Source: an uncultured Gammaproteobacteria bacterium
GTDB lineage: Bacteria; Patescibacteriota; Patescibacteriia; Patescibacteriales; GWC2-42-12
Assembly (NCBI GenBank): GCA_964560005.1
Contig: CAZLKB010000001.1
Location: 13,079-77,078, forward strand
Direction: 5' to 3'
Length of the DNA stretch: 64,000 nt
In this document: in pieces, positions 2,418 through 60,120 of the stretch
Layout of the letters: the number at the start of each line of letters is the position of its first letter
Position numbering within the stretch: the stretch's first letter is position 1
Program-made: the position numbers and the translations under genes
The notes under the pieces: model-generated
Told to the model about the DNA's origin: nothing
Seen by the model: only the letters and a program-made list of their open reading frames with translations
The model's database searches: none

Positions 2418-2634
2418 ATTATTTTTTAATAATTTTTATATTATCATTATACGATTGCGCCGATACGCTGTCAAGATTAAAAGACAAAAATATTTTAGGC
2501 TGCCCCCCTGCTTGCCCGCCCTGGGTGGGGAATCCAGAGAGAGGCGGTTCTCTCCTCCAAATCATAATTCATATTGAAAATTAGGATATTTAGTTATTTT
2601 TTAAAAATTAAAAATTAAAAATTAAAAATTTTCT

Positions 2635-3360
2635 TCACTTCCCCAGCGTCCAGCCGAAAACTTTCTGCACGGCGTTGCTTAAAACGTCTACCAGGGAAAT
2701 ATTGCCCGCGCCGGTGTAAAACACGTACTGCTCGGAATATATCTTGATTTGGTTAGAATCGGTGGCGCTGACCGAATACCGATAAACCGAATCCGGATCC
2801 AGCGCGGGAATTATCAGGATATGGTTAAAGCCGAAGTAAGTATCCTTAAAAACTTTTTTGTCTTTCTCCCCGCTTTTATAATATTCCGCTTCAACGTACG
2901 ACCGCCTGTTGGTCTGACAGCTGATCACCGCCCGGATCTCGGTTTTGTCGCCTTCTTTGGCGGTATAGAGCTCGCTGGCTACATTGTTAATCGTGAATAT
3001 TTCGGTTTCGCCGAAATCAAAAACATTGGTGCCCGAGCCTTCAAGGTTGATCTGCAGCATCTCAAAATTTTCGCTCGCGGCGATGGCCTGCGCCCTTTTG
3101 GCCGCTTCCGTCGTTGAGGTCGCTATGACGATTTTTTGGCTGATATCAAAGGTATTTTTTGTCTGATTAACCTCAATCGCTCCTTTATCGGCGCCGGAAA
3201 ATAAAAACATTCTGAATAAAAAATATAAGAAAAACAAAATTAAGAGGATAATGATGATCCAGACAATAATCCGCCTGCGGCGCCTTTTTTTCGCCTCAGT
3301 TTCTTTTTCTTCTTCTAAAGCCGCCGCCTTAAGCTCGGCTTGATTATTAGGAGAATCCAT
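2635..3360 (-). CDS. single-pass membrane-anchored hypothetical protein
   Basis: 241-aa ORF. A basic stretch (KKRRRRRI) precedes one TM helix (IVWIIIILLILFFLYFLFRMFLF), followed by a soluble domain with no motif I recognise. Confidence 0.5.
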   Translation of the reverse strand: MDSPNNQAELKAAALEEEKETEAKKRRRRRIIVWIIIILLILFFLYFLFRMFLFSGADKGAIEVNQTKNTFDISQKIVIATSTTEAAKRAQAIAASENFEMLQINLEGSGTNVFDFGETEIFTINNVASELYTAKEGDKTEIRAVISCQTNRRSYVEAEYYKSGEKDKKVFKDTYFGFNHILIIPALDPDSVYRYSVSATDSNQIKIYSEQYVFYTGAGNISLVDVLSNAVQKVFGWTLGK

Positions 3361-3831
3361 AAATTAAATTTTCAATTTCTAATTTTCAATTTCTAAACAA
3401 TTATATAATTTCTCAATTTTCAATTAATTTCATTTCTTAAACTCGTTCCAATTTTATTAAAAATCAGTGTTAATTCATGAGCTTCTTTCCATAATTACCT
3501 TAATTCATTAATTTCTTCCTTGTTGGTTTCAGCGATTAACTCTAACCAATATTTAGTTTCCTGAATTTCTTTTCTACAGATAAATATTTTATTTTTAAAA
3601 TCTTTTCTTGAAGTGGCGCCGTTGGCTTCGCAATAATTCGCTCCGACACTAGTGGCTGATCTGATTAGTTGCGACACTATATTATCGTTTATTGAATTCC
3701 TTTTAATTTTTATTAACAACCCGATTATTTTTTTACTAAATAATTTTGTTCTATCCTCCAAATCGTACTGCATAATTGAAAATTATTTCATTGGAAATTG
3801 TTTGAAAATTAGAAATTGAAAATTAAAAATT
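3361..3831. repeat. heptamer-built inverted repeat whose arms (3361..3428 and 3775..3831) enclose the four-helix-bundle gene
   Basis: The reverse complement of the right arm shares a perfect 23-nt run, AATTTTCAATTTCTAATTTTCAA, with the left arm. Further matches are AACAATT and AATTTTCAAT. The arms abut the start of the 2635..3360 gene and the stop of the 3832..5019 gene. Confidence 0.85.
3495..3773 (-). CDS. four-helix-bundle protein (23S rRNA intervening-sequence protein family), ended by an in-frame TAA
   Basis: LIRSATSVGANYCEANGATSRKDFKNKIFICRKEIQETKYWLELI is the family core motif. After TAA at 3495-3497 the same frame continues LWKEAHELTLIFNKIGTSLRNEIN to TGA at 3420-3422, which looks like the missing last helix. 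Confidence 0.8.
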   Translation of the reverse strand: MQYDLEDRTKLFSKKIIGLLIKIKRNSINDNIVSQLIRSATSVGANYCEANGATSRKDFKNKIFICRKEIQETKYWLELIAETNKEEINELR

Positions 3832-5019
3832 CTACTTATATCTTAAAGAAATCAGCGGATCGCTCTTGCTCGCCTGCCTGGCCGGAATCAGGCCGGTGAA
3901 AAATCCCACCAAGGTGGCCACCGCTAAAATAAAAATCAAAAACCAGCCGGGAAAATAAAACAGCGAAATCGCCAGGCCGCCCATTTTCTGGGCCAGGAAA
4001 TTAAATAAAAAATTAAACAGCTGGCCGGCGATAAATCCCAGCGCCACGCCGAAAACCCCGCCCAAAAAACCCATAATGGTTGATTCAAAGACAAACATCC
4101 AAAGAATATCCTGATTGGTCGCCCCGATTGATTTCATGATGCCGATTTCTTCCGTTCTTTCCATGAGCGTCACCACCATGGTATTGAACATGCCGATGGC
4201 GCTGACCATTAAGGCGATAGCTCCGAACAGGCCGAGAATTATCCTGACTACCTGAAAAGTTTTTTCCACTTGATCAATGATGTCGGTTAAGGCGGAAACT
4301 ATGAACCCGCCGCCGGTTAGGCTGTTCCTGACGTCGTTCATCGCCCGGCTGGAAGAGCATTTGACCTTCAGCCTGGAATAGGCGAAAGACGGGTAAAGAC
4401 TAGCCAAGGTTTTTTGGTTGGCGAAAACAATGATGTCTTTTTTGTCAACCAGTCCGGTAATTTTATAATCTATGGCCGCCCTTTCCCCCGAATCGCCGGT
4501 AAAAAATATTTTTATGCTTTCCCCCGCCATCGCTTCCGGAGCCTTTTCAAATACTTTGGCTAAAGTGTTGGAAATTATCACCCCGCCGCTTCCCTCGCCG
4601 ATCTCTTCTCTCTGAATGACTTTCAGGCCTTCCAGGGCGAAAAAATTTTCATCAACCGCGATTACCTTGGCGTCCGTCACCAAGCCGCTAAACTCTAATT
4701 GCCCGGTAGTTTCAAAAACCGGGCTAACCAGGCTGACACCGGGAATTTTACCGATGCCTAAAATCTCCGCCTGGCTGATGGCCGGGCTGGATTCTTTAGG
4801 ATAAACGTCTAAGGTTACGAGCGAATCGGCCGTGGTAATGGTTTCTAAAAGAGTCCTTTGGATGCCGAAGCCCAAGGCGACCAGAAATAAAATCGCGCCG
4901 ATACCCACGCTCATGCCTAAAATGGTCAAAAGCGTCCTGGAAGTTCTGGCCTTAAACATTCTGGTGGAAAATTTTAATAGATTCCAGAAACCCATAAAGT
5001 AATAATTTTCAATTCTCAA
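3832..5019 (-). CDS. ABC transporter permease, FtsX/MacB type
   Basis: The N-terminal TM helix RTLLTILGMSVGIGAILFLVALG is followed by a large extracytoplasmic domain and then three C-terminal TM helices containing EIGIMKSIGAT. The first 8 codons (MRIENYYF) are repeat-encoded, so the real start may be ATG at 4995. Confidence 0.85.
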   Translation of the reverse strand: MRIENYYFMGFWNLLKFSTRMFKARTSRTLLTILGMSVGIGAILFLVALGFGIQRTLLETITTADSLVTLDVYPKESSPAISQAEILGIGKIPGVSLVSPVFETTGQLEFSGLVTDAKVIAVDENFFALEGLKVIQREEIGEGSGGVIISNTLAKVFEKAPEAMAGESIKIFFTGDSGERAAIDYKITGLVDKKDIIVFANQKTLASLYPSFAYSRLKVKCSSSRAMNDVRNSLTGGGFIVSALTDIIDQVEKTFQVVRIILGLFGAIALMVSAIGMFNTMVVTLMERTEEIGIMKSIGATNQDILWMFVFESTIMGFLGGVFGVALGFIAGQLFNFLFNFLAQKMGGLAISLFYFPGWFLIFILAVATLVGFFTGLIPARQASKSDPLISLRYK

Positions 5020-5152
5020 TTTTCAATTTTCAAACAATGACCAATGGATTAATGATTAAATTTTCAAACATGTACTCAATTTAATTAATTGAAAATTAAA
5101 ACATTGAAAATTCATTGAAAATTAGAAATTGAAAATTGAAAATTTTAAATAT
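5004..5152. repeat. heptamer-built inverted repeat ('GAAAATT' subfamily) between the ABC ATPase and permease genes
   Basis: AATTTTCAATTCTCAATTTTCAATTTTCAAACAATG opposes CATTGAAAATTCATTGAAAATTAGAAATTGAAAATTGAAAATT. Confidence 0.85.
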
Positions 5153-6622: not shown

Positions 6623-6802
6623 GTTATATTTTATCCTGCGCCCCGCCCGGCGGAACAGCAAAGGACAAGTTGCTTTTTAAAATAATCTTCATCATTAAAA
6701 GTCAAAAAATCAAGCCCTGACGATTTTATTTACGGCCTTGCCTGATAAAATTATACAACTTTAGAGAGTTCTTGTAAAACTTCCTAAATCTCGCGTTATG
6801 AG

Positions 6803-8434
6803 TTATGAGTTATGCGTTACCCGTCCTGCCAGCCCCAGCGCCAGCCATAAAAACAACACCCCGAAATGCAGGCTCCAAAGCCAATGGTCAAAAGACATTA
6901 GAATTACCAGGGAAATAAAAATAGAAATACTTACCATTGAATTTATAGCATAGTCGTTTTCGCTAATTCTAAATTTATAATCTTCCCCCAGCCGGGGACA
7001 TGCAATTTTTAATGAATTGTTTGAAAATTGGTTAATTGAAAATTGTTTGTCCTCCGAAGGCTTGCCGAAGGGGGGAAAATTGAAAATTATTAAACATACT
7101 ATCAGCCCAATAAATAAAATTAATCCTACTATCCCCGTCTCCGCCCAAACCAATAAGAACACATTATGCGCCGGCTGGTAATAATAGCTCGACTCGTCCG
7201 GCTTTAACTCATTATACTGGGCCAAAGTATAATTCCCTAGACCCGCGCCTCCGGCCCAATATTTTTTAATTATCGGCCAGGCATTTTTAATCGACTCAAT
7301 CCTTTCGCTGTTTGATTTAATTTCCAGTCGGTTCGGCGCGTTCGCGAAGCTTAAGGCGCTTGGCATCGCCGCGAAAGATTGAACCGGATATAGCCGCGTC
7401 ATAACTAAATTAGGGTACAGTAAAAATAAAACCAGCGCCACCGCTCCGATAATCAGCATAGCCTGCGCCAGCGCCTTCTCGGCCAATAGGTTTCTTTTGG
7501 CTAAAGACCACAGAACCAGCGCCAGCATGCCCAGCCCGGCTCCCAGCCAGGCGCTTCTGGAAAAGCTAAAAAATAAGGTAGCGGTAAAAATCACTAATAA
7601 TGACCAAGACAATATTTTAAAAATTTTAACATTGAAAATTGTTTGAAAATTATCAGTCGGCTGGTTAATTGAATTTTTTGATTTTTTTGAAAATTGAAAA
7701 TTGAAAATTGAAAATTGATTAAATTTTTCTAGCCTAACAACTTCCCCTACCAAAAGCAGTATGCCTACAGCCATCAGCCCGCCCAATATATTGGGGTGAT
7801 CCAGAGAGCCATAGGCTCTTAGCCATCTTTCGCCCATGCCGTCCGACGCCACCGTCTCAATAACCGACGTTCCCGGCTGGCTCGCCTGGTGCAAAGCCAG
7901 CCCGAGCCATTTGCTTTGAAATGTGGCTTGAAATAAAAACTGCCAGATCGCCAGCAAGGCCTGGGTCGCTATGCCGAAAAGCAAACTCCAAACCAGCTTT
8001 ACTCTATGGTATTGGCTGGCCGCCAACAGCCAGAATAAACCCGCGCCTAAAATCAGCCAGCCGAATTTATAAAACGCCAGCAGTTTGCTCAAAGCAAAAA
8101 AAATGGAAGTAGCCGAAACTAAAATTAAACCTCCAATCAGCAGCCAGGTTAATTGAAATTTTTTAATTGTTTGAAAATTAGATAATTGGAAATTGTTTAA
8201 AAATTGAAAATTAAAAATTAAAAATTTTTTTTGGAAAACCCGATAAATCACAAAAAGAAATAATAATAATATCAATAGTACATCCGTCCCATACAAACTG
8301 TATGTTCCATACTCCCACGGCCCGTTGTTTAAAACTCCCGGCTTAATGATCCAGCGGGTCTGGAGCGGCAGCGTGAAAACTAAGAGGTATAAGCCGTATT
8401 CAATTGTTTTATTTAAATACTTCATATAATACAA
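6803..8434 (-). CDS. O-antigen ligase/polymerase (Wzy_C-like) polytopic membrane protein
   Basis: Many TM helices, plus FSFSRSAWLGAGLGMLAL, which is typical of Wzy_C. Three repeat-encoded in-frame insertions are present (FNFQFLNNFQLSNFQ, FNQFSIFNFQFSKKSK, FSINQFSNNSLK). Confidence 0.7.
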   Translation of the reverse strand: MYYMKYLNKTIEYGLYLLVFTLPLQTRWIIKPGVLNNGPWEYGTYSLYGTDVLLILLLFLFVIYRVFQKKFLIFNFQFLNNFQLSNFQTIKKFQLTWLLIGGLILVSATSIFFALSKLLAFYKFGWLILGAGLFWLLAASQYHRVKLVWSLLFGIATQALLAIWQFLFQATFQSKWLGLALHQASQPGTSVIETVASDGMGERWLRAYGSLDHPNILGGLMAVGILLLVGEVVRLEKFNQFSIFNFQFSKKSKNSINQPTDNFQTIFNVKIFKILSWSLLVIFTATLFFSFSRSAWLGAGLGMLALVLWSLAKRNLLAEKALAQAMLIIGAVALVLFLLYPNLVMTRLYPVQSFAAMPSALSFANAPNRLEIKSNSERIESIKNAWPIIKKYWAGGAGLGNYTLAQYNELKPDESSYYYQPAHNVFLLVWAETGIVGLILFIGLIVCLIIFNFPPFGKPSEDKQFSINQFSNNSLKIACPRLGEDYKFRISENDYAINSMVSISIFISLVILMSFDHWLWSLHFGVLFLWLALGLAGRVTHNS

Positions 8435-8545
8435 ATTTTCAATTTCTAATTTTCAAACAATGCAATAATTCTTCAATTCTTAAATTAATTGAAAATTAAA
8501 TCATTAAAAATTGTTTGAAAATTGAGACTTGAAAATTGAAAATTA
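8434..8545. repeat. heptamer-built inverted repeat ('GAAAATT' subfamily)
   Basis: AAATTTTCAATTTCTAATTTTCAAACAATG opposes ATTGTTTGAAAATTGAGACTTGAAAATTGAAAATT. Confidence 0.85.
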
Positions 8546-8547
8546 TC

Positions 8548-9750: not shown

Positions 9751-9960
9751 GATGTAAAATGTAAATCTCAAAATGTAAAATGACAATTTAAAATACAAAA
9801 TAAAAATTCTAAATTCTAATATCTAAATTCTAAATAAAAAGTAATGAATATTGGTTTTTTATTTGAAATTTAGATATTGGAATTTGTTTGGATTTTAGGA
9901 TTTATAATTTTAAATTTTTCATTGTCATTTTACATTTTGAGATTTACATTTTACATTTTA
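9751..9960. repeat. nested inverted repeat: 'TGTAAAA' arms enclosing 'CTAAATT' arms
   Basis: Outer arms GATGTAAAATGTAAATCTCAAAATGTAAAATGACAAT / ATTGTCATTTTACATTTTGAGATTTACATTTTACAT. Inner arms AATTCTAAATTCTAATATCTAAATTCTAAAT / ATTTGAAATTTAGATATTGGAATTT. Confidence 0.9.
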
Positions 9961-10030: not shown

Positions 10031-11128
10031 TTATTCCACATTCGGGCGATCAATTAAAATCGGCTCAATTTTTTTCTCACTAGCCGTTATTTTCATCACA
10101 TCCTTATCAATCTTGCCGAACTCTTTATAAGCGTTATTATAATGATTCACCGCGGTCGACATGCTGGCGCCTAGTTTTTTCATAAAATCGTCATAACTTA
10201 AAATATGCCGGCCCAATTTTTGCACATTCAGTAAAATATCTTTAGCGCTTTCTTCTATCTGCAAAGCTCTTAAACCTTGTAAGACCGTCTGCAGATAAGC
10301 TAAAAAGGAAGTCGGCGAAACGATAATAACATGCTTTTCCTTAAAGGCATATTCAATCAGATCGCGCGTGTTGACCTGAACCGCTCCGACCTTGTTGATC
10401 AATAGGTCGTAATAAATCGCTTCGGAAGGAATAAACATAAAAGCGAAGTCCATGGTTTTTTCCGACGGTTTGATATATTTTGAAGTTTCATCAATGCGGG
10501 TCTTTAAATCTATTTTAAAAAGCTTTTCCAGCTTTTCCTTCGCTCCTCGGTCGCTTTCATTCAGAATCTTCTCATAATTCTCCAGGCTGAATTTAGAATC
10601 CACCGGAATAATTTTATCTTTAACGAAAACTACGGCGTCAACTATGGTGCCGTCCTTAAAGCCATACTGCATCTTATAGGAATTGGGAGGCAAAACATTT
10701 TTTAAAGTCTCTTCCAGAAAATATTCGCCTAAGACCCCGCGCTGTTTCGGATTTTTTAAAATATCCTGCAAATTCTGCAATTGGGCGGAAAAATTCACCA
10801 CCTGGCGGTTGGTTTCGTCCAGCTTGGTTAATTTCTCGGTCACTTCGGTAATTAGCCTGGCTGATTGCCCGGTAATACCCTGGATGATCTTTGAAGTTTG
10901 GCTGTATTGTTCTTGATTGGCGCGGTGAGTCTCGGCCAGCTTGCCGTCAATCGCCCGCCTAAGCTCGCAATTTTGGTCGCCTAACGCGGTCAGCCTTTCC
11001 ATCATAGCGGCCAATTTTTCGCCGTCAGGCGATGGCTCAGCCGGCCTTTTTTTAACTAACAAAAATATCACGATTATTACGCTAACAATCAGTAAAATTA
11101 ATAAAAATACAATAAATTGATTTAACAT
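10031..11128 (-). CDS. rmuC: DNA recombination protein RmuC
   Basis: N-terminal TM helix, a coiled coil, then KQRGVLGEYFLEETLKNVLP...IVDAVVFVKDKIIPVDSKFSLENY...FMFIPSEAIY, which matches the RmuC nuclease core. Confidence 0.85.
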   Translation of the reverse strand: MLNQFIVFLLILLIVSVIIVIFLLVKKRPAEPSPDGEKLAAMMERLTALGDQNCELRRAIDGKLAETHRANQEQYSQTSKIIQGITGQSARLITEVTEKLTKLDETNRQVVNFSAQLQNLQDILKNPKQRGVLGEYFLEETLKNVLPPNSYKMQYGFKDGTIVDAVVFVKDKIIPVDSKFSLENYEKILNESDRGAKEKLEKLFKIDLKTRIDETSKYIKPSEKTMDFAFMFIPSEAIYYDLLINKVGAVQVNTRDLIEYAFKEKHVIIVSPTSFLAYLQTVLQGLRALQIEESAKDILLNVQKLGRHILSYDDFMKKLGASMSTAVNHYNNAYKEFGKIDKDVMKITASEKKIEPILIDRPNVE

Positions 11129-11245
11129 AAATTGAGCTGATTTTTATATGATTACAAAGATGTTTTTAATAATTTTAGTTTAACAATTAAAATTGATTAG
11201 CGCAACTGCCATGCCACCCCCTTTATTAAAGGGGCCAAACTAATC

Positions 11246-11274
11246 TTGACTCCTAACTAAAAATATACTAAAAT
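11246..11274 (+). promoter_or_regulatory. sigma70-like promoter of pilin cassette 1
   Basis: TTGACT (11246-11251), an exactly 17-nt spacer, then TAAAAT (11269-11274). An almost identical copy lies at 12318..12346. Confidence 0.65.
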
Positions 11275-11280
11275 TTTGCC

Positions 11281-11389
11281 AGCATCAATTAAGACGCCTG
11301 ATTTGGCCGGTGGCCGAATCGGGTTGCTAAAAGCAAGGGTAAAAACCTACTCGGTCTTGATTGATTTAGGAGAGAAAGTTTAAAAATTA
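11281..11389 (+). promoter_or_regulatory. conserved structured 5' leader of pilin cassette 1 (candidate cis-regulatory RNA)
   Basis: CAATTAAGAC (leader 5' end) can pair with GTCTTGATTG just before the SD AGGAGAG. This long-range pairing encloses two hairpins: CCTGATT..GGCC-GGT-GGCC..AATCGGG and TTGC-TAAAA-GCAA. A near-identical leader lies at 12353..12457. Confidence 0.5.
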
Positions 11390-12028
11390 ATGAAAACAAA
11401 AACGGCAGAAAATCCCGGATTCACCTTGGTGGAAATCATGATAGTCGTCGCGATCCTCGGCCTGCTCGCCGCCATCGTCGCCCCCAACTTCGTCCGGGCG
11501 CGCTTAGTCAGCCAAAAAAACGGCTGCATCTTTAATCTTAAAAAGATCGAGATCGCCAAAGCCTCCTTCGTCCTGGACAGGCGAATGGCCGTGGGCATGG
11601 CGGTGTCTATGGATGACCTCTACAGCACGAATCGGCCGGTTTGCCCGGGCGGCGGCAAGTATTCGCCCGGCCAAGTCGGCGTTAATCCCTCCTGCACTTA
11701 CACGGGGCATGCTCTGGAAGGATCCGAATCTCCGCAAAATCAAGAGGCGCAAGAGATTCGGATTGGAAATGGCAGCTACATCAAGATCGGAAGGATAGCG
11801 ACCGAAAACGGCACCATGAAATTCACCCTTAAGACAATCGAGCGGTTTGAAACCGCCCATCCTGATTTAAAGATCACCGGCCGGCAGGTGGTATTCTCTG
11901 CCTCAAATGTGGTTATGGGAATTTTACTTTGGCATGAGCCGAGAACCCGCGCCATCGCGCTGGAAAAACCGACCCGGCAACGACCCGCGCCTCTCGGAAC
12001 CCGCACCCTCTCGGCGCAAGCCCGCTGA
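11390..12028 (+). CDS. type IV pilin-like protein (prepilin N-terminal cleavage/methylation domain) with a ~100-aa C-terminal extension
   Basis: NPGFTLVEIMIVVAILGLLAAIV is the classic G/FTL-x-E prepilin motif. It is followed by C-x-x-NLKKIE and a C-terminal Cys pair (CPGGGKYSPGQVGVNPSC). GC-richer than the surrounding genes. Confidence 0.8.
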   Translation: MKTKTAENPGFTLVEIMIVVAILGLLAAIVAPNFVRARLVSQKNGCIFNLKKIEIAKASFVLDRRMAVGMAVSMDDLYSTNRPVCPGGGKYSPGQVGVNPSCTYTGHALEGSESPQNQEAQEIRIGNGSYIKIGRIATENGTMKFTLKTIERFETAHPDLKITGRQVVFSASNVVMGILLWHEPRTRAIALEKPTRQRPAPLGTRTLSAQAR

Positions 12029-12050
12029 AAGGTAATCAAAAATTCACTAA

Positions 12051-12086
12051 AGAGCCAGAGAAACTCCCTCCGGCTCTCTTTTTTTA
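12051..12086 (+). terminator. rho-independent terminator of pilin cassette 1
   Basis: The AGAGCC..GGCTCT stem is followed by CTTTTTTTA. A near-identical copy lies at 12843..12877. Confidence 0.7.
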
Positions 12087-12137
12087 TCTTGCAAAGGGGA
12101 AAGCAACCTTTAAAGATTAATTGCCCCCTTTAAGACC

Positions 12138-12300
12138 ACCATGGGGGCTTGGGGGTCCGAGCTGAGCGCCAAGGCGCGTGCGCAAGAATGTCAAAGAAGC
12201 AATAGCGAATTGAGGACCCCCAAAACTTCTTTGGATACTTTCTTAGTTATAAGAAAGTATCCCCTAGCGGAGCGTCGTGAACGAATTAACTGATAAATGG
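12138..12300. repeat. ~165-nt structured repeat, copy a (copies b and c at 29244 and 63617)
   Basis: Sequence ACCAtGGGGcTTGGGGGTCCGAGCTGAGCG...CTAGCGAATTGAGGACCCCC, then a perfect hairpin GGATACTTTCTTAGTTATAAGAAAGTATCC, then CCTAGCGGAGCGTCGTGAACG. Confidence 0.85.
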
Positions 12301-12317
12301 CGGGGTTTTAATGCGCC

Positions 12318-12346
12318 TTGACTCATAACTAATAATGTACTAAAAT
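12318..12346 (+). promoter_or_regulatory. sigma70-like promoter of pilin cassette 2
   Basis: TTGACT (12318-12323), a 17-nt spacer, then TAAAAT (12341-12346). Confidence 0.65.
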
Positions 12347-12352
12347 TTTGCC

Positions 12353-12457
12353 AGAATCAATCAAGGCGCCTGATTTGGCCGGTAGCCGAATCGGGTTGCA
12401 AAAAGCAAGGGTTAAAAACCTAACTCTATCCTGATTGATAAAGGAGAAAAAATCTTT
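12353..12457 (+). promoter_or_regulatory. conserved structured 5' leader of pilin cassette 2
   Basis: My hand alignment of promoter plus leader against copy 1 shows 8 substitutions and one 1-nt indel over about 108 nt. The first 90 coding nt differ at 29 positions. Confidence 0.5.
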
Positions 12458-12823
12458 GTGAAAATAAAAACATCCCGAAGGTACGGCTTCACCCTGGTGG
12501 AGGTAATATTAGTCGCCTTTGTCTTCTGCTTGCTCGCCACCATCCTCTCCGCTCCCTGTTTCTTTAGGGCGCGCGAAACGAGGCAAAAAAACACCTGCAT
12601 CGCCAATCTGCAACAACTGGAAAAGGCAAAAATTGCCTGGGCTGCCGACAACGGGATTACTAATGGTACGCCCATAGACGACCGCTTTTACACCGGTCCG
12701 ATATTTATTCCGAATATTCCCTGCTGTCCGGCTGGCGGCGTATATAGTATTAACCCAATCGGCGTTCCGCCGACCTGCTCCTTAACTAATCTGAGGCATG
12801 TTCTCCCGTTAAAACCGCGATGA
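12458..12823 (+). CDS. type IV pilin-like protein (prepilin N-terminal domain), short paralog
   Basis: GTG start. Motifs YGFTLVEVILVAFVFCLLATIL, C-x-x-NLQQLEKAK and CPAGGVYSINPIGVPPTC parallel the upstream paralog. Confidence 0.75.
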   Translation: MKIKTSRRYGFTLVEVILVAFVFCLLATILSAPCFFRARETRQKNTCIANLQQLEKAKIAWAADNGITNGTPIDDRFYTGPIFIPNIPCCPAGGVYSINPIGVPPTCSLTNLRHVLPLKPR

Positions 12824-12842
12824 ACGGCCAAAAATCCGCCAA

Positions 12843-12877
12843 AGAGCCCGAGACACTCCCTCCGGCTCTCTTTTTTT
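12843..12877 (+). terminator. rho-independent terminator of pilin cassette 2
   Basis: AGAGCCCGAGACACTCCCTCCGGCTCTCTTTTTTT, the same stem and T-run as at 12051. Confidence 0.7.
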
Positions 12878-12936
12878 ATCGCTCGCCTTGCCAAGAACGA
12901 TTTTTTAATCTATAATGAATTGCATTGTTTTAACTT

Positions 12937-13057
12937 CCCACAAATCTACAAATCAGCTACGAATACTACAAACACTATTCGCAGCATTCGCAACTTTATT
13001 TCGGCATTCTCATTATATTTATTCGTATTATTTGTAGCGGATTTGTTGATTCGTGGG
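12937..13057. repeat. AT-rich inverted repeat, 'ACTACAAA' subfamily, upstream of uvrA
   Basis: The left arm CCCACAAATCTACAAATCAGCTACGAATACTACAAA opposes the right arm TTTGTAGCGGATTTGTTGATTCGTGGG. Related copies lie at 24334..24415 and 59984..60120. Confidence 0.8.
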
Positions 13058-13082
13058 ATAACAAACTCTATTAGAAATTTTT

Positions 13083-16000
13083 ATGCCTAGTACAATAAAA
13101 ATCAAGGGGGCGCGCGTCCATAACTTAAAAAATATTGACGTGGAAATTCCGCGCGATAAGCTGGTTGTCCTGACCGGACTGTCCGGTTCAGGCAAATCCA
13201 GCCTGGCTTTTGACACGATTTACGCCGAGGGTCAGCGCCGCTATGTTGAATCCCTGTCCGCTTACGCCCGGCAGTTCATCGGCCTGATGGATAAGCCTGA
13301 TGTTGATTCAATTGAAGGGCTGTCGCCGGCTATTTCCATTGATCAAAAATCCACCAGCCATAATCCGCGTTCAACCGTAGGCACCATTACGGAAATTTAT
13401 GATTATTTGCGCTTGCTTTACGCCCGCATCGGCGTGCCGCATTGCCCCTTATGCAACGAATTAATTAAGCCCATGTCTCTTGATGAAATCGTCCGCCAAA
13501 TTACGGCTAATTTCTTAAATCAAGATATTATTATCTTGGCTCCGATTATTAAGGATAAAAAGGGAGAACATAAGAGCATTTTAGAAGGCGTCGGCAAAGC
13601 CGGTTACTCCCGCTTGCGCTTTGACAAAGTGATCTACACTCTGGAAGAAGTGGAAGATTTAAATGTGGATAAGCAGAAAAAACATAATGTGGAAATTGTG
13701 ATTGACCGGCTAAAAATCGCCAAAGACAAGGAAGACTTGGCGCGGCTTAGTGAAAATGTGGAAAAAGCCTTGGAGTTGGGCAATGGACTGGTAACCATTT
13801 CGCCACAAAATGCTTTAATTAAAACTGATAAAAAATTAACTGAAACAGATAATAAAAAAACGCCCAATTCCCAAATTCCCTCCGTCCGGGAACAAGCAAC
13901 TCCAAATTTCCAAACAAATCCTAAGTCCGAATTACTAAATTCAAAAAAAATTCAAAATTCAAAATTCAAAATTCTAAATTCAGATGTCACCTATTCAAAA
14001 CTCTTAGCCTGCCCGAAATGCGGCTTGAGTCTGCCTGATTTGGAACCAAGAAATTTTTCTTTTAACTCGCCTCATGGCGCTTGCCCTGACTGCACCGGAC
14101 TGGGCACCAAGCTGGAGATTGATTCAAAATTAATTATTAATCCTAACCTAACCATCGCCCAGGGAGCGATTCGCCCTTGGGCCCACAGCACGGCCACCGG
14201 ACAGGGCTGGCTGATGCGGATTCTCGGCACCGTGGCCATGGATCACGGTTTTGACTTAAATACGCCGGTAAAAAACTTAACTGAAAAACAATTAAACATC
14301 GTGCTCTACGGCTCGGGCGCGAAAAACTATAATGTCAATTATCAAAGCGAGCGTTTTTCCGGAGAATTAACCACCGAGTTCGAAGGCGTCATTCCCAATC
14401 TGGAGCGCCGCTTTCAGCAAACCGAATCGGATTATATTAGACGTGAAATTGAGCAATATATGCGCGTCTTAATCTGCCCGACCTGCCTGGGCAAGCGCTT
14501 AAAGCCGGAAACCCTGGCCGTCACCGTCGCCGGCCAATCAATTTATGACATCACTTCAAAAACCATAGATAAAATAAAAAAAATCTTTTCCGATTTGGCC
14601 AATTCCTCGGTTTTAACCGGCCGCGAGAAAAAAATCGGGTCGCGGATAATGAAAGAAATCTGCGCCCGGCTGGATTTTCTCTCCGATGTCGGTCTGGACT
14701 ACTTAACTTTGGAAAGATCGGCCAACACCCTGTCCGGCGGCGAAGCCCAGCGCATAAGATTGGCGACGCAAATCGGTTCGGCTCTGATGGGTGTAATTTA
14801 TATTTTAGACGAGCCGTCCATCGGCCTGCACCAGCGGGATAATAACAAGCTGATCAACACGCTTAAAAAATTAAGAGATCTGGGCAATACCGTGATTGTG
14901 GTTGAGCACGACGAAGCCACCATGCTGGCCGCGGACTGGCTCCTTGACATCGGCCCGGGAGCCGGCGAACATGGCGGCCAGATCGTGGCCCAGGGCACGC
15001 CTCAAGAGGTTAAAAAAAATCCAAAATCTTTAACCGGCCAATACCTAAGCGGTAAAAAATCAATCCCGGCGCCGCTTCAATATCGGTCCTCTACCGGCCG
15101 CAGCCTTAAAATTATCGGCGCTGAAGAACATAATTTAAAAAACATTGACATTGAATTTCCCTTAGGGAAATTTATCGCCATCACCGGCGTTTCCGGCTCG
15201 GGCAAGTCCACCTTAATGACCGATATTCTGGCCAGAGCCTTAAATCAGAAGCTTTACCGCGCCAAAGAGGCGCCAGGCAAGCATAAAACTATCTTGGGAT
15301 TGGAATATATTGATAAAGTCATTGATATTGACCAGTCGCCTATCGGCCGCACGCCGCGCTCCAACCCCGCCACCTATACCGGCTCCTTCACGCCGATCCG
15401 CGATTTGTTCGCCGCGCTTCCCGAAGCTAAAATCCGCGGCTATAAAGCCGGACGGTTTTCTTTTAATGTGGTGGGCGGCCGCTGCGAAGCCTGCGGCGGC
15501 GACGGCGTAGTTAAAATTGAAATGCAATTCCTGCCGGACATCTATGTTGAATGCGATGTCTGCCACGGCAAGCGCTATAACCAGGAAGTTTTGGAAATCC
15601 ATTACGGCGCGCGCCACGGCGTCGGATCGGGAAAAAATATTTCCGAGGTTCTAAATATGACCGTGGAAGAAGCCATGCATTTGTTTAAAAACATCCCGGC
15701 GATTCACCAAAAGCTTTCCGCGCTGAACGAAGTCGGCTTAAGCTATATAAAACTCGGGCAATCGGCTACCACTCTGTCCGGCGGCGAGGCCCAAAGAGTA
15801 AAATTGGCCACCGAGTTATCCCGCCGCGCTACTGGCAAAACCTTATACATTTTGGATGAACCCACCACCGGCCTGCATTTTGACGATATAAAAAAACTCC
15901 TTCATGTTTTGAACCAATTGGTAGATAAAGGCAACACGGTTCTAATCGTTGAGCACAACCTGGATGTCATTAAATCCGTGGATTGGGTGATTGATCTCGG

Positions 16001-16416: not shown

Positions 16417-16440
16417 AATTAAAGAATAATTCAGAATCAC

Positions 16441-18128: not shown

Positions 18129-18152
18129 ATTATGTTTATATTGAAATAATTA

Positions 18153-18868: not shown

Positions 18869-18870
18869 AG

Positions 18871-48417: not shown

Positions 48418-48420
48418 AAA

Positions 48421-48530
48421 AAATGTAAAGTGTAAAAATCAAAATGAAAAATGACAATTTAAAGTTTAAAATGAATTAATAATTTTACATTTTGCATTAT
48501 CATTTTACACTTTGAGATTTACATTTTAAA
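48421..48530. repeat. AT-rich inverted repeat, 'TGTAAAA' subfamily, directly upstream of uvrC
   Basis: AAATGTAAAGTGTAAAAATCAAAATGAAAAATGACAAT opposes ATTATCATTTTACACTTTGAGATTTACATTTTAAATT. Confidence 0.85.
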
Positions 48531-48605
48531 TTATATTACCACTTCCCCCAATAAAAAACAACTCTTATCTCTAAAAGTTGTTTTTTACTTCTGACTTCTA
48601 ATTTC

Positions 48606-48782
48606 TTACTTAACCTCAATCGCCTGCACCGGACAGCTCTCGGCCGCGTTTTTGGCGCAAGGCAAATCTTCCTCGCTGATCACTTCGGCCTTGCCTTCGG
48701 CGTTCATCTTGAAAACCGCCGGGCAGAGGGCTTCGCAGGTGCCGCAGCCGATGCATAATTCTTTATTGACTTTGATGGACAT
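48606..48782 (-). CDS. small single-cluster ferredoxin (58 aa, below the ORF-track cutoff)
   Basis: Hand translation gives MSIKVNKELCIGCGTCEALCPAVFKMNAEGKAEVISEEDLPCAKNAAESCPVQAIEVK. It has the C-x-x-C-x-x-C...CP pattern of short 4Fe-4S/3Fe-4S ferredoxins. The + ORF 48652..48840 is its antisense shadow. Confidence 0.8.
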   Translation of the reverse strand: MSIKVNKELCIGCGTCEALCPAVFKMNAEGKAEVISEEDLPCAKNAAESCPVQAIEVK

Positions 48783-48953
48783 AAGGTTAAAATTTTTAAT
48801 TTTAAATTTTATAATTTTTAAACAATTTTTAATGATTTAATTTTCAATTTTAAAACAGGCCTTTAAATATATTTTGTTTAAAAATTTAAGTATTAAAAAT
48901 TGAATATTGTTTAAAAATTAATAATTAATAATTAATAATTGAAAATTTGTCTT
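48783..48953. repeat. AT-rich inverted repeat between gyrA and the ferredoxin gene
   Basis: AATTTTTAATTTTAAATTTTATAATTTTTAAACAATTTTTAATG opposes ATTAAAAATTGAATATTGTTTAAAAATTAATAATTAATAATTAATAATTGAAAATT. AATTAAT is repeated three times in tandem. Confidence 0.8.
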
Positions 48954-51713: not shown

Positions 51714-51844
51714 TCCCGCCCGTCTCGCCGTATCGTAGCCGAGGCGGACGAAGGCGGCTTGCCCGCCTTGGGTGAGGAATCAAAATTATTGCTTAATTAA
51801 TTTTACATTTTAAATTGTCACTTTACATTTTGATTTTTACATTT

Positions 51845-52402
51845 TCAATTTTCTACCGTACTGCTCGCCGTCGTACTGGACGCCACCTCATTTAATAACT
51901 TTCCTTTTAATAAATTAATTTGTTCAGCAGTAAGCTCCGATTCTTTGGGCAAAGCGCTGGACGCGTTTTTCTGTATCTGCTTAATTTGTTCTACGCCTTG
52001 CTTAACCTGCGTCATTGCTTTATCTAATTCAGACTTGGCCTGGCTCCAATTAAATAAATTTCCCGAATTTTTATTCGCGCTGGACTTAAATTCATATTTT
52101 AAAGTAAAGATCCAGGCTATAAAAAATACCGCCATTATACAGCTTATTCCCACCCACATGATTAATTTCTTTTTTTTCTCTTCTCCTTCATCGACGGGTT
52201 CAATCTTATTTTCCACAATCGCCGGCGGCTGTTCAGTTGCTGGAAAATTTTCAGCCTTCGGCGCGTTTATCTTTTTTACCCTTGGCTTTTTAATTTTTTT
52301 CATCTGTACGCCTTCATGCCCGTCATTAGCTTTATCTTGGCTAACCTCTATATTATCATTCGTAATTCTTTTTTTTCTCCCCCTTTTTGGCATAATATAC
52401 AC
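51845..52402 (-). CDS. single-pass membrane hypothetical protein
   Basis: 185-aa ORF with a basic N-terminus, one TM helix (LIMWVGISCIMAVFFIAWIFTL) and a C-terminal soluble tail. No motif recognised. Confidence 0.45.
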   Translation of the reverse strand: MYIMPKRGRKKRITNDNIEVSQDKANDGHEGVQMKKIKKPRVKKINAPKAENFPATEQPPAIVENKIEPVDEGEEKKKKLIMWVGISCIMAVFFIAWIFTLKYEFKSSANKNSGNLFNWSQAKSELDKAMTQVKQGVEQIKQIQKNASSALPKESELTAEQINLLKGKLLNEVASSTTASSTVEN

Positions 52403-52576: not shown

Positions 52577-52876
52577 TCACGCCGAAATCTTAGCGAATGG
52601 TTCCATAGCCAAAATTTCTTTTGTTTCAGCTTCGGAAATAACTTTGCGCCTCTTAAGTACATCTATCAATTTTCCAACTTTAGTATCTTCTTTGCGCGTC
52701 AATACCACTAGATCGCCGCGCAAATCGGACAACTTATCATCTAAATAGTCCTTAGTCACCATCGTTGATTCAATTTTGTCTAATCTTGTCTCAACTTTAT
52801 CAAAACGACCGCCAATGCCATCAAATTCTTTTTTCATCATCACCGCCAAGGTATCAATTGTTATTTTTTCCTCCAT
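52577..52876 (-). CDS. small coiled-coil protein, paralog of 2172..2417
   Basis: 99-aa ORF with the shared N-terminal motif ITIDTLAVMMKKEFDGIGGRFD. Confidence 0.55.
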   Translation of the reverse strand: MEEKITIDTLAVMMKKEFDGIGGRFDKVETRLDKIESTMVTKDYLDDKLSDLRGDLVVLTRKEDTKVGKLIDVLKRRKVISEAETKEILAMEPFAKISA

Positions 52877-57342: not shown

Positions 57343-57362
57343 ATATTTTTTATAATTAATAA

Positions 57363-59987
57363 TTATCTTGAAAAATATTTTCCGTCATCCTCGTCATCAG
57401 AATCTTTAATAGATGACGGCTCGTCTTCTTGCCCTGAGCCATCTGATAGTGAGCCTGTCAAACTAGCCGAAGGGTCTTCGGGCAGGCTTACCGATTTAAC
57501 TCTGGGCTCTTTAATGCTAGCTGATTCGCTAACCGGCTGATCCAAAATTTCTTTTTTAAATTTATTTTCAGCCTCATTATCCGCATCTTCGGTTTCCTCT
57601 GTTTCATCCTCCAACTTATCCTCCAAAGCCTCTTCATCCTCCAAAGCTTCAGCGTCGGAGGAAGCGTCGGCGGGCAAATACTCGTCCGGCGCTTCGGCTT
57701 CCTCTTGCTTATGTAACGGCGCGCCGCTCGGACCTTGACTTACCATACTATCATATTGCTCGCGGCTAATCAAAATTTCCCGCGGCTTGGAGCCCGAGCC
57801 CGGACCGATAACGCCGGCTTCTTCTAAGAGATCCAACAGTCTGGCGGCGCGCGCGTAACCGACGCTTAAGCGCCTCTGCAAATATGAAGCCGAGGCCTTG
57901 CCCGAATTAATGATCAATTCTTTGGCTTCTTCTAAAAGGTCGTCACTGTCTTCCGAACCGCCCGCCTGCCAGCCGGCAATGCCTTGCACCTTCTGCCGAT
58001 CGGTAATGCCTTCAATATACTGCGCTTCGCCGCCGCGGTCTTTAATATAATTAACGATCCGCTTAATTTCGTTTTCACTGACGAAAGCGCCCTGTAATCT
58101 CTTGGGTTTGGAGAATTCCGCCGTGGTATAGAGCATGTCGCCCCGGCCCAGTAATTTTTCCGCGCCTAAGGAATCCAAAATCGTGCGCGAGTCTATGCCC
58201 GAAGCTACGGAAAAAGCGATGCGCGCCGGCATGTTGGCTTTAATCAAGCCGGTAATAACATCAACGCTCGGCCTTTGGGTGGCTAAAACCAAGTGGATGC
58301 CCACCGCTCTGGCCATTTGCGCCAAGCGGATAATCCCGGCTTCTATGTCTTTTCCGGCCGCCACCATCAAATCGGCCAATTCATCAATGATAAAGACCAG
58401 ATAGGGCATCTTACCCATCTCGTCATCGCCATGGACTTTATCGGCTATTTCATTATAACTGACGATATTTTTTCTGCCTGACTTAGCCAAGGTGACAAAG
58501 CGCCTGTCCATTTCATTTAAGCACCATTTTAAAGCGTTAATGGTCTTGCCCACATCGGTGATGACCGGAGTTAATAGATGCGGAATGCCGTTATAGACCG
58601 GCAGTTCCACCCGCTTGGGATCAACCATGATAAAGCGCAAACTGTCCGGGTCGTTTTGATAGAGCAGGCTGATAATAATCGCGTTTAAGCAAACCGATTT
58701 GCCCGAGTTGGTGGCGCCGGCCACCAGTAAGTGAGGCATTTTTGATAAATCGTCCAGCCAAACCTTGCCGCCGACATCCTTGCCCAAAGCGATCAGGGTA
58801 TCGGTTTTTCTGTTTCTATACATCTCTCCGCCCAAGACCTCCCTTAACCCGACGATGGCTTTAGTCTGGTTAGGCACTTCAACGCCGACCAAGGACCGGC
58901 CCGGTATAGGCGCCTCGATCCTGATCGGATGAGCGGCCAGGTTTAAAGCCAAGTCGTTTGATAAGGTGGTGATGCGCGATAATTTAATGCCGTCAGCCGG
59001 CCTAAAAGTATATTGGGTAACGGTCGGGCCGATATTAATCTCTCCCATCTCTACCGGTATGCCGAAATTTTCCAAAGTTTTTTGGATAATCTGCAAGTTA
59101 TTCTTAATGTCGCCGGAGGTGGGTTTGCCGATTTTGGCATTCAGTAAATCCAAGGGCAGCCCAATTTTGATATGAGTCGGCTTCCAGTCGCTATCTTCTT
59201 TTTTAGTTTTACCCGCCTTGGCTCCGACGCTATCTTCGGCCTGGCCGGCCTTGATTTTATGCTTATGAAATCCAACTTCGTTTAACTCTTCCGGCTCGGA
59301 AATTTCGGAGTCGGCGGCTTCATCAAATTCTTCATCCGCGGTTTCTGCGGCTACGGAAGCTGCTTCATCGATTTCATCCCCGCGTCCGCGTCTAAATATT
59401 TTATTAAATACAAAATTGATCGGATAAAGCAATTTGGCGAACCAGCTGTCTCGGCCGATCATAGATTCTAAGGTGGCGTTGAATAGCAGCATGACGGAAA
59501 TGAATAACAAGCCGACGATTACAACCAGGCTGGCCCAAAAACCCATGATTTTATAGAAAATCGTTAACAAGCCGTAGCCGATATAACCGCCGCCCTGGCC
59601 TTCCATAACAGCCGTCTGCCACTTGTCCTGGCCGACAAAAGTATGAAGCAAGGCGCCGAAAGATATGACGAATATAAATAAACCCAAAAAATTAGCGCCC
59701 CTGACCCAATTTTTATCGCGATTATACATTAAAAACCCGATGGCCAGAAAAGATAGAGGAAAAATCCATTTAGCCCAGCCGAATAAAAAGATGATGCCCC
59801 GCTCCAGATACCTGCCTAAGCCTTCAGCCAAACCGAAGAGGCTAAGTAGGCTGATGGCGCCAATAGCCAAAATTAAAATAATAAAAATACCCCTCTTCAT
59901 GTCAGGGTCTAAATTAACCTTGGGCAATCTAATATAATCCAAAGCATTGGCTTTTCTTCGATGTCTTCTCATAATAATATTATTCAA
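57363..59987 (-). CDS. ftsK: DNA translocase FtsK/SpoIIIE with an acidic C-terminal tail
   Basis: N-terminal TM helices, Walker A LVAGATNSGKSVCLN, Walker B-like YLVFIIDELADLM and the gamma winged-helix SASYLQRRLSVGYARAARLLDLLEEAGVIG. An Asp/Glu-rich tail of about 130 aa follows. Confidence 0.93.
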   Translation of the reverse strand: MNNIIMRRHRRKANALDYIRLPKVNLDPDMKRGIFIILILAIGAISLLSLFGLAEGLGRYLERGIIFLFGWAKWIFPLSFLAIGFLMYNRDKNWVRGANFLGLFIFVISFGALLHTFVGQDKWQTAVMEGQGGGYIGYGLLTIFYKIMGFWASLVVIVGLLFISVMLLFNATLESMIGRDSWFAKLLYPINFVFNKIFRRGRGDEIDEAASVAAETADEEFDEAADSEISEPEELNEVGFHKHKIKAGQAEDSVGAKAGKTKKEDSDWKPTHIKIGLPLDLLNAKIGKPTSGDIKNNLQIIQKTLENFGIPVEMGEINIGPTVTQYTFRPADGIKLSRITTLSNDLALNLAAHPIRIEAPIPGRSLVGVEVPNQTKAIVGLREVLGGEMYRNRKTDTLIALGKDVGGKVWLDDLSKMPHLLVAGATNSGKSVCLNAIIISLLYQNDPDSLRFIMVDPKRVELPVYNGIPHLLTPVITDVGKTINALKWCLNEMDRRFVTLAKSGRKNIVSYNEIADKVHGDDEMGKMPYLVFIIDELADLMVAAGKDIEAGIIRLAQMARAVGIHLVLATQRPSVDVITGLIKANMPARIAFSVASGIDSRTILDSLGAEKLLGRGDMLYTTAEFSKPKRLQGAFVSENEIKRIVNYIKDRGGEAQYIEGITDRQKVQGIAGWQAGGSEDSDDLLEEAKELIINSGKASASYLQRRLSVGYARAARLLDLLEEAGVIGPGSGSKPREILISREQYDSMVSQGPSGAPLHKQEEAEAPDEYLPADASSDAEALEDEEALEDKLEDETEETEDADNEAENKFKKEILDQPVSESASIKEPRVKSVSLPEDPSASLTGSLSDGSGQEDEPSSIKDSDDEDDGKYFSR

Positions 59988-60120
59988 ATACTACAAATTA
60001 ACACCCAAATACTACGAAAGAATGCAAAAAACAGACAATACAAATACCTTAGATATAAGATATTTGCAGTATTTGGATAATTTTTGTAGTATTTGAATTA
60101 TATTAATTTGTAGAATGCGC
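59984..60120. repeat. AT-rich inverted repeat, 'ACTACAAA' subfamily, directly upstream of ftsK
   Basis: TTCAAATACTACAAATT and CCCAAATACTACGAAAG oppose ATATTTGCAGTATTTGG, ATTTTTGTAGTATTTGAA and AATTTGTAGAATGCGCA. CAAATAC recurs at offsets 0, 21 and 56. Confidence 0.8.

Follow-up and report, generated by a model that had tools for sequence, protein, structure and literature searches.

Heptamer-armed hairpins in the operon spacers of a patescibacterial genome and their probable kinship with gene-carrying cassettes of the intervening-sequence type

Many intergenic spacers in a 64,000-nt stretch of patescibacterial DNA (contig CAZLKB010000001.1 of assembly GCA_964560005.1; the whole stretch is called the window below) are filled by hairpins, about half of which have arms built of degenerate 7-nt units. 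On balance, we favour the reading that these hairpins belong to, or are derived by loss of the gene from, a group of small selfish palindromic cassettes of the intervening sequence (IVS) type that are transcribed within operons. This reading draws on a cassette at positions 3361–3831, where two inverted heptamer arms enclose a gene of the 23S_rRNA_IVP family (IVP in the following), on the recurrence of the same arrangement in other genomes of the Candidate Phyla Radiation (CPR) and in further phyla, and on the homology between gene-less hairpins of the window and the arms of IVP genes elsewhere.

The IVP cassette and its relatives

An earlier note on this DNA, made from the sequence alone, had treated 3361–3831 as one repeat interval and had overlooked the gene inside it. 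The cassette is oriented on the minus strand and extends from the stop codon of an FtsX-like permease gene (3832–5019) to the start of a gene for a 241-aa protein (2635–3360). Its arms, at 3364–3411 (AATTTNN units and an AAACAAT-type core) and 3780–3827 (the complementary ATTGTTT core and NNAAATT units), are 48 nt long and 79% complementary and can form a long stem enclosing the open reading frame (ORF). This ORF of about 117 codons (3420–3773, minus strand) matches the 23S_rRNA_IVP/four-helix-bundle family PF05635 with E=6e-15 and, when read through a single in-frame TAA at 3495–3497, occupies the entire loop between the arms; the copy is probably a recent pseudogene. It is 70–89% identical to full-length proteins of 114–118 aa from Falkowbacteria, Moranbacteria, Yonathbacteria and other lineages, whereas ArgRS in the fetched relatives is only 38–71% identical. 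Among the window hairpins, a PF05635 ORF occurs at 3361–3831 only, and it is the sole gene that the cassette carries, no transposase domain being found there with Pfam.

For comparison, 851 kb of DNA, scattered across genomes, was fetched as loci and assemblies, which carry L numbers in the following. A survey of other CPR metagenomes yielded 97 IVP hits at about 80 distinct loci and, by eye, the gene lies between the same arms at nearly all of them (loci within L019–L109), with the layout (AATTTNN)n AAACAAT upstream and ATTGTTT (NNAAATT)n downstream. The arms reach the stop codon of the upstream neighbour on one side and the start codon of the downstream neighbour on the other, as between pheS and pheT in L019. 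In a rigid ungapped test, 33 of the 56 scorable loci had arms at least 70% complementary over 42 nt; the test does not tolerate a register shift or an insertion in an arm. The sequence logo of the 46 best loci has a strict 7-nt register of four units followed by AAACAAT, in which AATTT carries 1.5–2.0 bits and NN 0.3–0.7 bits, and these variable NN positions agree between the paired arms of a locus in a fraction of 0.73, which falls to 0.53 on permutation of arms among loci (z=8.6, 0/2000 permutations). The gene is co-directional with both neighbours at 46 of 55 loci and with the upstream gene at 53 of the same 55, and the gaps to the neighbouring genes have medians of 68 and 61 nt. Moreover, no internal stop is present in 72 of the 77 distinct CPR copies, a pattern in the sequences which indicates that selection acts on the IVP gene. 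No rRNA motifs were found in L001–L115.

The Bacteroides protein of PDB entry 2RLD provided the bridge to IVP genes outside the CPR. In Bacteroides, these genes are inserted between araD and araA and between aminotransferase and DAHP synthase genes, and have (AATTGAC)n...(GTCAATT)n on their two sides; unit numbers differ between L116 and L118. In Nostoc, Dolichospermum, Planktothrix, Euhalothece and Chondrinema, the plasmid-borne IVP gene lies between co-directional genes and is flanked by reverse-complementary arrays of 4–12 heptamers, clean in the cyanobacteria and looser in Chondrinema. The unit varies from one cassette to another (AATTCGT, AATTCGC, AATTCAA, AAGTCGG, GGGTGTG and CCAGTTA/ACTGGTC), and AAGTCGG, GGGTGTG and AATTCGC all occur within Nostoc punctiforme; arrays of CCAGTTA/ACTGGTC, and arrays containing TAACTGA, flank the IVP genes of Euhalothece and Chondrinema. 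In six 20-kb loci, each of the 14 IVP gene ends lies at most 130 nt from a period-7 array (joint P ~1e-15). Most of the non-CPR IVP genes sampled have inverted heptamer flanks, and three other loci, to which we return below, fit poorly.

Two further observations concern these non-CPR cassettes. They are often located within defence or restriction-modification operons (L124, L127, L128, L131 and L132), in settings that include a DrmD/PglX interval, a helicase/methylase interval and a position beside cas1, and this siting may be the reason why 23S_rRNA_IVP has been reported in the vicinity of cas genes before. On the Dolichospermum plasmid L131 (10376–14504), arrays of 5–11 copies of the IVP-arm unit AATTACG have six more occurrences, within or between downstream 'hypothetical' and DNA methyltransferase genes, and these may represent gene-less remnants or in-frame insertions.

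Heptamer hairpins of the window, their gene-less forms and their turnover

The 24 hairpin or repeat elements of the window were examined one by one for period. Thirteen of them, spread over about 11 spacers and assigned to families A, B, D and E, are built on heptamers, with at least three head-to-tail 7-nt copies that are mostly intergenic, and the other 11 elements (families C, F, G and H) are not. The earlier claim of more than 20 spacers filled by hairpins with 7-nt arms was therefore about right for hairpin-filled spacers and approximately twice too high for the 7-nt arms. The inverted repeats themselves were as had been described, with arms of 40–65 nt and 70–90% complementarity, and 16 of 17 elements fold more stably than all 200 of their dinucleotide shuffles (z from -3.9 to -14.4), the sole exception being 48785–48934 (z=-2.0).

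Every exact tandem heptamer that had been listed was recovered by Tandem Repeats Finder, in arrays at 2601–2630 (4.3 copies), 6795–6819 (3.6), 7687–7718 (4.6), 13947–13982 (5.1), 19270–19308, 34025–34044 (2.9) and 48911–48940 (4.3), and after merging of overlapping rows the period is 7, 14 or 21 in 29 of the 65 arrays of the window. Autocorrelation of the intergenic DNA, scored against Markov shuffles, has its maxima at 7 (z=6.5) and 14 nt (z=6.7); the values at 6 (z=5.3) and 8 nt (z=4.5), which are also raised as side-lobes of indel variants, are both exceeded by that at 7, in keeping with the phasing that the earlier note had proposed to check in this way. Coding DNA has period 3 only. When copies are pooled, the z score at period 7 (z7) is 6.8 for family A (GAAAATT) and 11.1 for family B (AAAATGN), the latter with harmonics at 14 and 21. 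Family C (CAAATAC/TACAAAT) had been placed in the same 7-nt class and does not belong there, since its pooled z7 is 0.7 and its best period is 9; the offsets of 0, 21 and 56 noted for CAAATAC are literally present and do not constitute a periodic signal. Families F, G and H are without period. Two independent short-read Logan assemblies, L110 and L111, reproduce 5004–5152 with 100% identity, which excludes an assembly artefact as the source of the elements. Both of their contigs stop in the next repeat arm.

Judged by homology, three hairpins are IVP arms minus the gene. They are the gene-less family A hairpins at 5004–5152, in the spacer between ABC ATPase and FtsX-like genes (fold z=-4.8, z7=4.3), and at 8431–8547, between the Wzy-like gene and a gene for a 416-aa protein (fold z=-5.6), together with a weakly folding family A/E hairpin at 48785–48953 (z7=3.4) between gyrA and a small ORF. 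All three match IVP-flanking arms of other genomes at 90–97% identity: 5004–5152 matches arms in L030, L019, L056, L102 and L043 (90–97%), and 48785–48953 matches sequence adjoining IVP genes in L033 and L106–L108 (92–93%). The period of 8431–8547 itself is weak, with a best value of 8 (z=2.8) and z7=2.4. The small ORF beside 48785–48953 (minus strand, ~48603–48782) is ferredoxin-like by eye and carries no annotation. Gene-less arm pairs of the strict pattern are also present in L036, L065, L103 and L106/L108.

Family E (AAAAATT units) is represented by a hairpin at 32658–32795, downstream of the ValRS gene (fold z=-4.6, z7=2.7), and a single arm at 2570–2632 with 4.3 copies of TTAAAAA is of the E/A kind. 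Family B has a hairpin at 9752–9956, with arms at 9752–9809 and 9899–9956, and a family D hairpin at 9811–9885 is nested in its loop, as the earlier note had recognised; their fold z scores are -5.6 and -7.8, and their z7 values 3.7 and 3.8. Further family B hairpins lie at 18152–18265, between DedA and a class II synthetase gene read as ProRS on the basis of class II aminoacyl-tRNA synthetase Pfam domains only (fold z=-8.9, z7=5.3), at 18872–18980 in the DedA/ArgRS spacer (fold z=-3.9, z7=5.0) and at 48420–48532 downstream of uvrC (fold z=-5.4, z7=4.5), and there is a single family B arm at 51791–51848.

Copies of a family share long non-periodic stretches and carry their unit variants in the same order, as in family B where 9756–9794 and 18157–18195 are 97% identical over 39 nt, and they are therefore dispersed copies rather than independent local expansions. 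This bears on the proposal that the arrays are ordinary simple sequence repeats, generated by local polymerase slippage in AT-rich DNA, with the hairpins and the IVP link as by-products. Such an origin would agree with Mrazek's survey, as it is cited in PMC4679880, where heptanucleotide repeats are the most abundant class of simple sequence repeats and slippage is proposed, and also with unit numbers that vary among loci and strains and with the presence of arrays inside genes. Slippage accounts for changes in unit number and not for family structure, and it fits poorly with the 39-nt stretch and the shared AAACAAT core, with arms that are reverse-complementary and covary at their variable positions (z=8.6), and with 14 out of 14 IVP gene ends lying beside arrays (P ~1e-15). 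As an explanation of the whole we consider it improbable.

Turnover of the elements is visible in the syntenic block RmuC-x-Wzy-ABC-FtsX-y. The junction between FtsX and y, a gene for a 237-aa protein, is a bare 12 nt in L112 and is occupied by an IVP cassette in L113–L115 as well as in the window, so that the comparison of syntenic loci recommended in the earlier note reveals both empty and occupied states. The family A hairpin of the ABC/FtsX spacer has orthologous copies in L113–L115, and a different heptamer hairpin, with AATGACA units, takes this spacer in L112. Families B and G recur in L011/L013, where their copies, about 90% identical in nucleotides, occupy different spacers of the same block of genes (amino acid identity of ProRS to these relatives is 83–86%), the B hairpin of L011 has a different element nested in its loop, and family G is also found in other spacers of L011 and L112. 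Given that the relatives are distant (71–86% amino acid identity), loss is not distinguishable from gain. The scattered gene-less copies have the terminal inverted repeats of a longer element that carries a gene, and presence at orthologous sites is polymorphic, both of which are properties of miniature inverted-repeat transposable elements (MITEs). A MITE-like selfish element was one of the options considered in the earlier note, and it gains support from the dispersed families, the gene-carrying master with its gene-less forms, the empty site, the shifted positions, the nesting and the in-frame copies.

The hairpins could instead be host regulatory or structural elements, acting as bidirectional terminators, mRNA-stabilising 3' stems or translation-initiation platforms, which streamlined CPR genomes would retain as gene punctuation and whose phasing would reflect binding by a protein of the host, such as a cold-shock protein with one molecule to each heptamer of the T-rich arm. 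We regard this as rather unlikely. It would agree with the filling of whole spacers, up to the stop and start codons, with the conservation of the ABC/FtsX hairpin in the window and L113 and with that of AATTT at 1.5–2 bits; CspB binds heptamer units according to work reviewed in PMC4679880, and the pairs of 4–5x heptanucleotides in Geobacter have been interpreted as regulator sites (PMC2700814). However, one and the same spacer contains unrelated families in related genomes, as in L112 and the window, and the heptamer differs completely between cassettes, even in Nostoc punctiforme alone, a diversity within one genome that argues against one sequence-specific binder. In-frame intragenic copies and nesting are, moreover, typical of selfish insertion. 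A terminator role, which had been offered as an option, is rejected because the stems of 40–65 nt are AT-rich (14–24% GC) and lack the GC stem and following T-run of intrinsic terminators; a terminator scan gave 20 sites, compared with 28.1 in shuffles, and none in the heptamer hairpins. A promoter role was also rejected, internal matches being weak (9/12) and often on the wrong strand. Strong promoter-like sites are located in hairpin-free spacers (6778–6750 and 12888–12916), which fits the hairpin spacers being operon-internal.

Arm sequences also enter genes. In UvrA, an in-frame insertion at 13800–13982 (plus strand, aa 240–300), which holds a 21-nt tandem repeat and 5.1 copies of AAAATTC, makes the protein about 55 residues longer here than PDB 2R6F. 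In the Wzy-like gene, three fragments of family A arms within 7013–8230 (7013–7049, 7640–7718 and 8150–8230, minus strand) are read in frame (FNFQFS...) and fall in variable loops of the membrane protein when it is aligned with its orthologues in L112, L113 and L115. From these alignments, we accept insertion as the origin of the UvrA and Wzy-like loops. The last 11 codons of DedA (KNVKLKSQNVK) are encoded by the B arm of 18152–18265, in agreement with the earlier note, and the tail recurs in the relative L013; the N-terminus of the ABC permease, for which the same had been claimed, is an effect of a TTG-extended ORF, and the homologues align from the ATG at 4995. In ArgRS, heptamer arrays (AAATTTC and GACTTCT; 19251–19308, minus strand) encode part of a variable linker, and their interpretation as an insertion was rejected since a loop of similar length is present in 14 homologues.

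Two side observations on genes relate to this theme. Within the ValRS gene (29478–32657, minus strand) there is a Pfam Ser_hydrolase match (E=7e-9; aa 461–616), just after a heptamer array at 31335–31374 (aa 428–441); a domain may have been inserted into this essential enzyme. In L113 (2450–4201), a GC-rich palindrome (ccgcctgaggcggacccgcctccggcgggc) lies in frame in the Wzy-like gene, where it reads PPEADPPPAE, and the same palindrome is found within the upstream arm of the L113 IVP cassette (7201–7292); it represents a further family of small palindromic elements in Falkowbacteria.

Finally, the boundary repeats could act at the DNA level, as recombination sites providing homology for the swapping of single housekeeping genes between lineages in the manner of gene cassettes. 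The TyrRS-racemase-ArgRS-DedA-ProRS block (16803–23190, compared with L001–L016) shows a gene-by-gene mosaic of identity, with ProRS 83–86%, racemase 78–81% and ArgRS 48–50% identical to L011/L013 and ArgRS 71% identical to L001/L002. Each of these genes is flanked by hairpins, and the arm mismatches are without strand asymmetry, as such a role would allow. The mosaic suggests either single-gene replacement or chimeric metagenome-assembled genomes. It concerns a single block and few genomes, uneven rates or chimeras of genome binning could mimic it, no recombinase is linked to the repeats, and the proposal leaves the IVP gene and the 7-nt register unexplained; there is little to recommend it as a general account.

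A possible route through RNA and comparison with known systems

If the hairpins belong to selfish IVS-type cassettes, a simple sequence of events can be envisaged. The cassettes lie between co-directional genes and fill the spacer, and they would therefore be transcribed by host read-through. The two arms would pair in the transcript to yield a long AU-rich stem which, by analogy with the Coxiella IVS, could serve as a substrate for RNase III; cutting there would divide the polycistronic transcript at gene boundaries and free the IVP mRNA. Array length would drift through slippage, with gain and loss of units, and families B, D and E would be elements of the same kind. The RNA-processing role listed among the options in the earlier note fits this scheme by analogy with rRNA intervening sequences.

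Several results weigh against the preferred reading. Comparison of the filled with the empty FtsX junction revealed neither a target-site duplication nor a sharp boundary of the element, no recombinase is linked to the elements and we know of no catalytic activity of IVP. The data contain no gene-carrying relative of families B, D and E, the IVP copy of the window is itself broken, and the intragenic array of ArgRS occupies a loop of normal length rather than forming a clean insertion. RNase III cleavage is proposed here purely by analogy, and an RNase III signature was not found in the 851 kb fetched, a sample which is uninformative because it is scattered across genomes. Among arm mismatches, G·U combinations number 51 in the sense and 39 in the antisense direction, without strand asymmetry (p=0.25), and in five family B copies only 2 of 46 pairs are compensated and several are broken; pairing could therefore matter in DNA rather than in RNA. 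The three poorly fitting IVP loci outside the CPR are those of Bernardetia, where the arrays are direct and not inverted, Chlorohelix, with an array on one side only, and Pseudanabaena, which has a 35-nt repeat.

Among described systems, the rRNA IVS is closest in construction. IVS with an S23p (IVP) ORF are known from Coxiella burnetii, Leptospira and Salmonella (PMC4990558), and rRNA insertions of CPR bacteria can hold IVP ORFs (10.1101/2024.02.27.582315). The 23S rRNA IVS of Coxiella has terminal inverted repeats, a 28-bp stem with the S23p ORF in its loop and 2–3 tandem GACAGAT heptamers whose number is strain-variable; RNase III cuts it at the first repeat, as seen in an in vitro assay and by rapid amplification of cDNA ends, and excision by RNase III without religation has been demonstrated for Coxiella only (PMC4990558). 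The cassettes described here share the long terminal-repeat stem, the IVP-family ORF in the loop, the stem heptamers of variable copy number and the occasional decay of the ORF, and IVS are likewise regarded as selfish and horizontally spread. They differ in their host site, an operon spacer between protein-coding genes rather than an rRNA helix, in their longer arrays, with 4–5 units plus a core on both sides, and in the abundance of gene-less derivatives. Lying between protein genes and lacking rRNA motifs, they are not strict IVS, although they are built like one.

The second point of comparison is a class of heptanucleotide arrays. Those of cyanobacteria, the short tandemly repeated repetitive (STRR) sequences, were reported in 1990. 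Such arrays are a known and unexplained class (PMC4679880, PMC2408588, PMC2700814), including TAACTGA arrays in Beggiatoaceae, Cyanobacteria and Bacteroidetes (PMC4679880) and pairs of 4–5x heptanucleotide arrays in Geobacter (PMC2700814). The earlier note, which knew of no described repeat class with this 7-nt phasing and gene-boundary placement, overlooked these arrays as well as the heptamers of the Coxiella IVS (PMC4990558). Like them, the arrays reported here are intergenic and sometimes intragenic, consist of 2–12 exact or near-exact 7-nt units, often adjoin start codons and are scattered across phyla; unlike the published examples, which are direct arrays or pairs interpreted as regulator sites, they form inverted hairpin pairs with or without a gene. 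They do not, therefore, constitute a new repeat class as such and are of the IVS/heptamer-array kind, in CPR operon spacers.

MITEs and other small palindromic repeats, including the Correia/NEMIS, RUP, ERIC, repetitive extragenic palindromic (REP)/REPIN and Rickettsia palindromic elements, are short dispersed intergenic inverted repeats. The hairpins resemble such repeats in having gene-carrying and gene-less forms, nesting, presence/absence polymorphism and co-transcription with neighbouring genes, and in-frame copies inside protein genes recall the Rickettsia elements. In contrast to MITEs and REP sequences, the partner gene encodes a four-helix bundle of 115 aa and not a transposase or a REP-associated tyrosine transposase, and in contrast to MITEs no target-site duplication is seen and the arms are internally periodic, with units that differ between cassettes. 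A Y1-transposase domain was not among the Pfam results for 30 window ORFs (about a dozen smaller ORFs were not scanned, and REP/REPIN features were not searched for). A search of the open-access literature revealed no paper on MITE- or REP-like elements in CPR bacteria.

The relationship of IVP to Avd of diversity-generating retroelements (DGRs) invites a broader, more speculative proposal. Avd is a pentameric four-helix bundle which binds nucleic acid and the reverse transcriptase. To our knowledge, no role is known outside DGRs for the IVP family, which has thousands of members and a solved structure (2RLD). Avd belongs to the same Pfam family, PF05635 (PMC10053308); unlike Avd, the IVP genes stand alone between housekeeping genes, with no reverse transcriptase, template or variable repeat in the flanks inspected. 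S23p is a homopentamer according to work cited in PMC4990558, and PDB entry 2RLD has five chains. The unit sequence is free, its length is fixed at 7 nt, each arm has about 4–5 units and relatives of IVP are pentameric; from this combination, one may speculate that the IVP protein measures or binds the array. Tentatively, and with rather less confidence than for the selfish-cassette reading of the window, IVP/S23p genes and inverted tandem-heptamer arrays might be one mobile cassette across phyla, of which the rRNA IVS would be the special case noticed first, with the arrays of cyanobacteria (STRR), Beggiatoaceae, Bacteroidota, Geobacter and CPR as its arms and gene-less remnants. The pentameric IVP would generate or measure the arrays, one subunit per heptamer, possibly together with a polymerase, in the way that Avd works with the reverse transcriptase of DGRs.

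That inverted heptamer arrays accompany IVP genes in several phyla appears to be undescribed so far, and outside the Coxiella IVS no link between the gene and flanking heptamer arrays was found in the open-access literature, subscription-only papers lying outside the search. The link gives both the protein family and the arrays a testable context. In CPR bacteria, cassettes and derivatives occupy a large share of the scant non-coding DNA, at gene boundaries inside operons, and their sequences enter conserved proteins in frame (UvrA, the Wzy-like protein and the DedA tail). Should RNase III act on the stems, these would determine where polycistronic mRNAs are cut in a major and poorly understood branch of the bacteria. 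On the practical side, contigs terminate in the repeats and ORF callers extend genes into the arms.

Genomic setting and other repeats of the window

The window carries housekeeping genes, among them those for UvrA, UvrB, UvrC, GyrA, ArgRS, TyrRS, ValRS, an ABC transporter and a resistance-nodulation-division pump. Coding DNA has about 45% GC and the spacers are very AT-rich, at 14–24% GC. Its nearest relatives are Patescibacteria of the Parcubacteria/Falkowbacteria kind whose genomes were assembled from metagenomes, with best identities of 71% for ArgRS and 86% for ProRS. Rfam at gathering thresholds detected two tRNAs and nothing else in the window, and at E<=1 over 11100–13100 it gave chance hairpin matches only; judged by these searches, the hairpin families correspond to none of the described RNA families.

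The hairpins that are not heptamer-based include the family C hairpin at 12937–13057, with its period of 9 and other copies at 24329–24425 and 59970–60133, and the 130-nt hairpin of family G at 16505–16654, with a second copy at 20795–20944. Family F has a hairpin at 36233–36377 (fold z=-14.4) and a related copy at 23300–23449; neither F nor G has a 7-nt period. A hairpin at 21834–21972 was placed in family F by eye only, and sequence comparison gave no match.

A GC-rich repeat of about 160 nt (gggggtccgagctgagcg...gcgaattgaggaccccc..., followed by a second hairpin) is present in three to four copies without a 7-nt period, at 12130–12310, 29240–29400 and 63610–63770 and as a variant near 16440–16500. 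The copy at 12130–12310 has no Rfam match at E<=1, and the comparison for the other copies was made at gathering thresholds alone. A conserved leader, about 110 nt in length (ctaaaattttgccag...gcctgatttggccggt.gccgaatcgggttgc...), occurs twice, at 11250–11389 and 12340–12457, directly upstream of two pilin-like genes with an N_methyl motif; both leaders have a promoter-like site, TTGACT-17-TAAAAT, in front of them, and no Rfam match was obtained for either.

At 35465–35660, the 3' half of tRNA-Val(GAC) is repeated in interrupted form after the tRNA itself (cacattgacattgtggaggtca...cgagcccagtattgtccacca), and this second copy may be the remnant of an integration site. Small ORFs of about 80–100 aa at 2180–2430 and 52577–52876, both on the minus strand, are paralogous and share the pattern M..K.IT.D.LAVM.K.EFDG...

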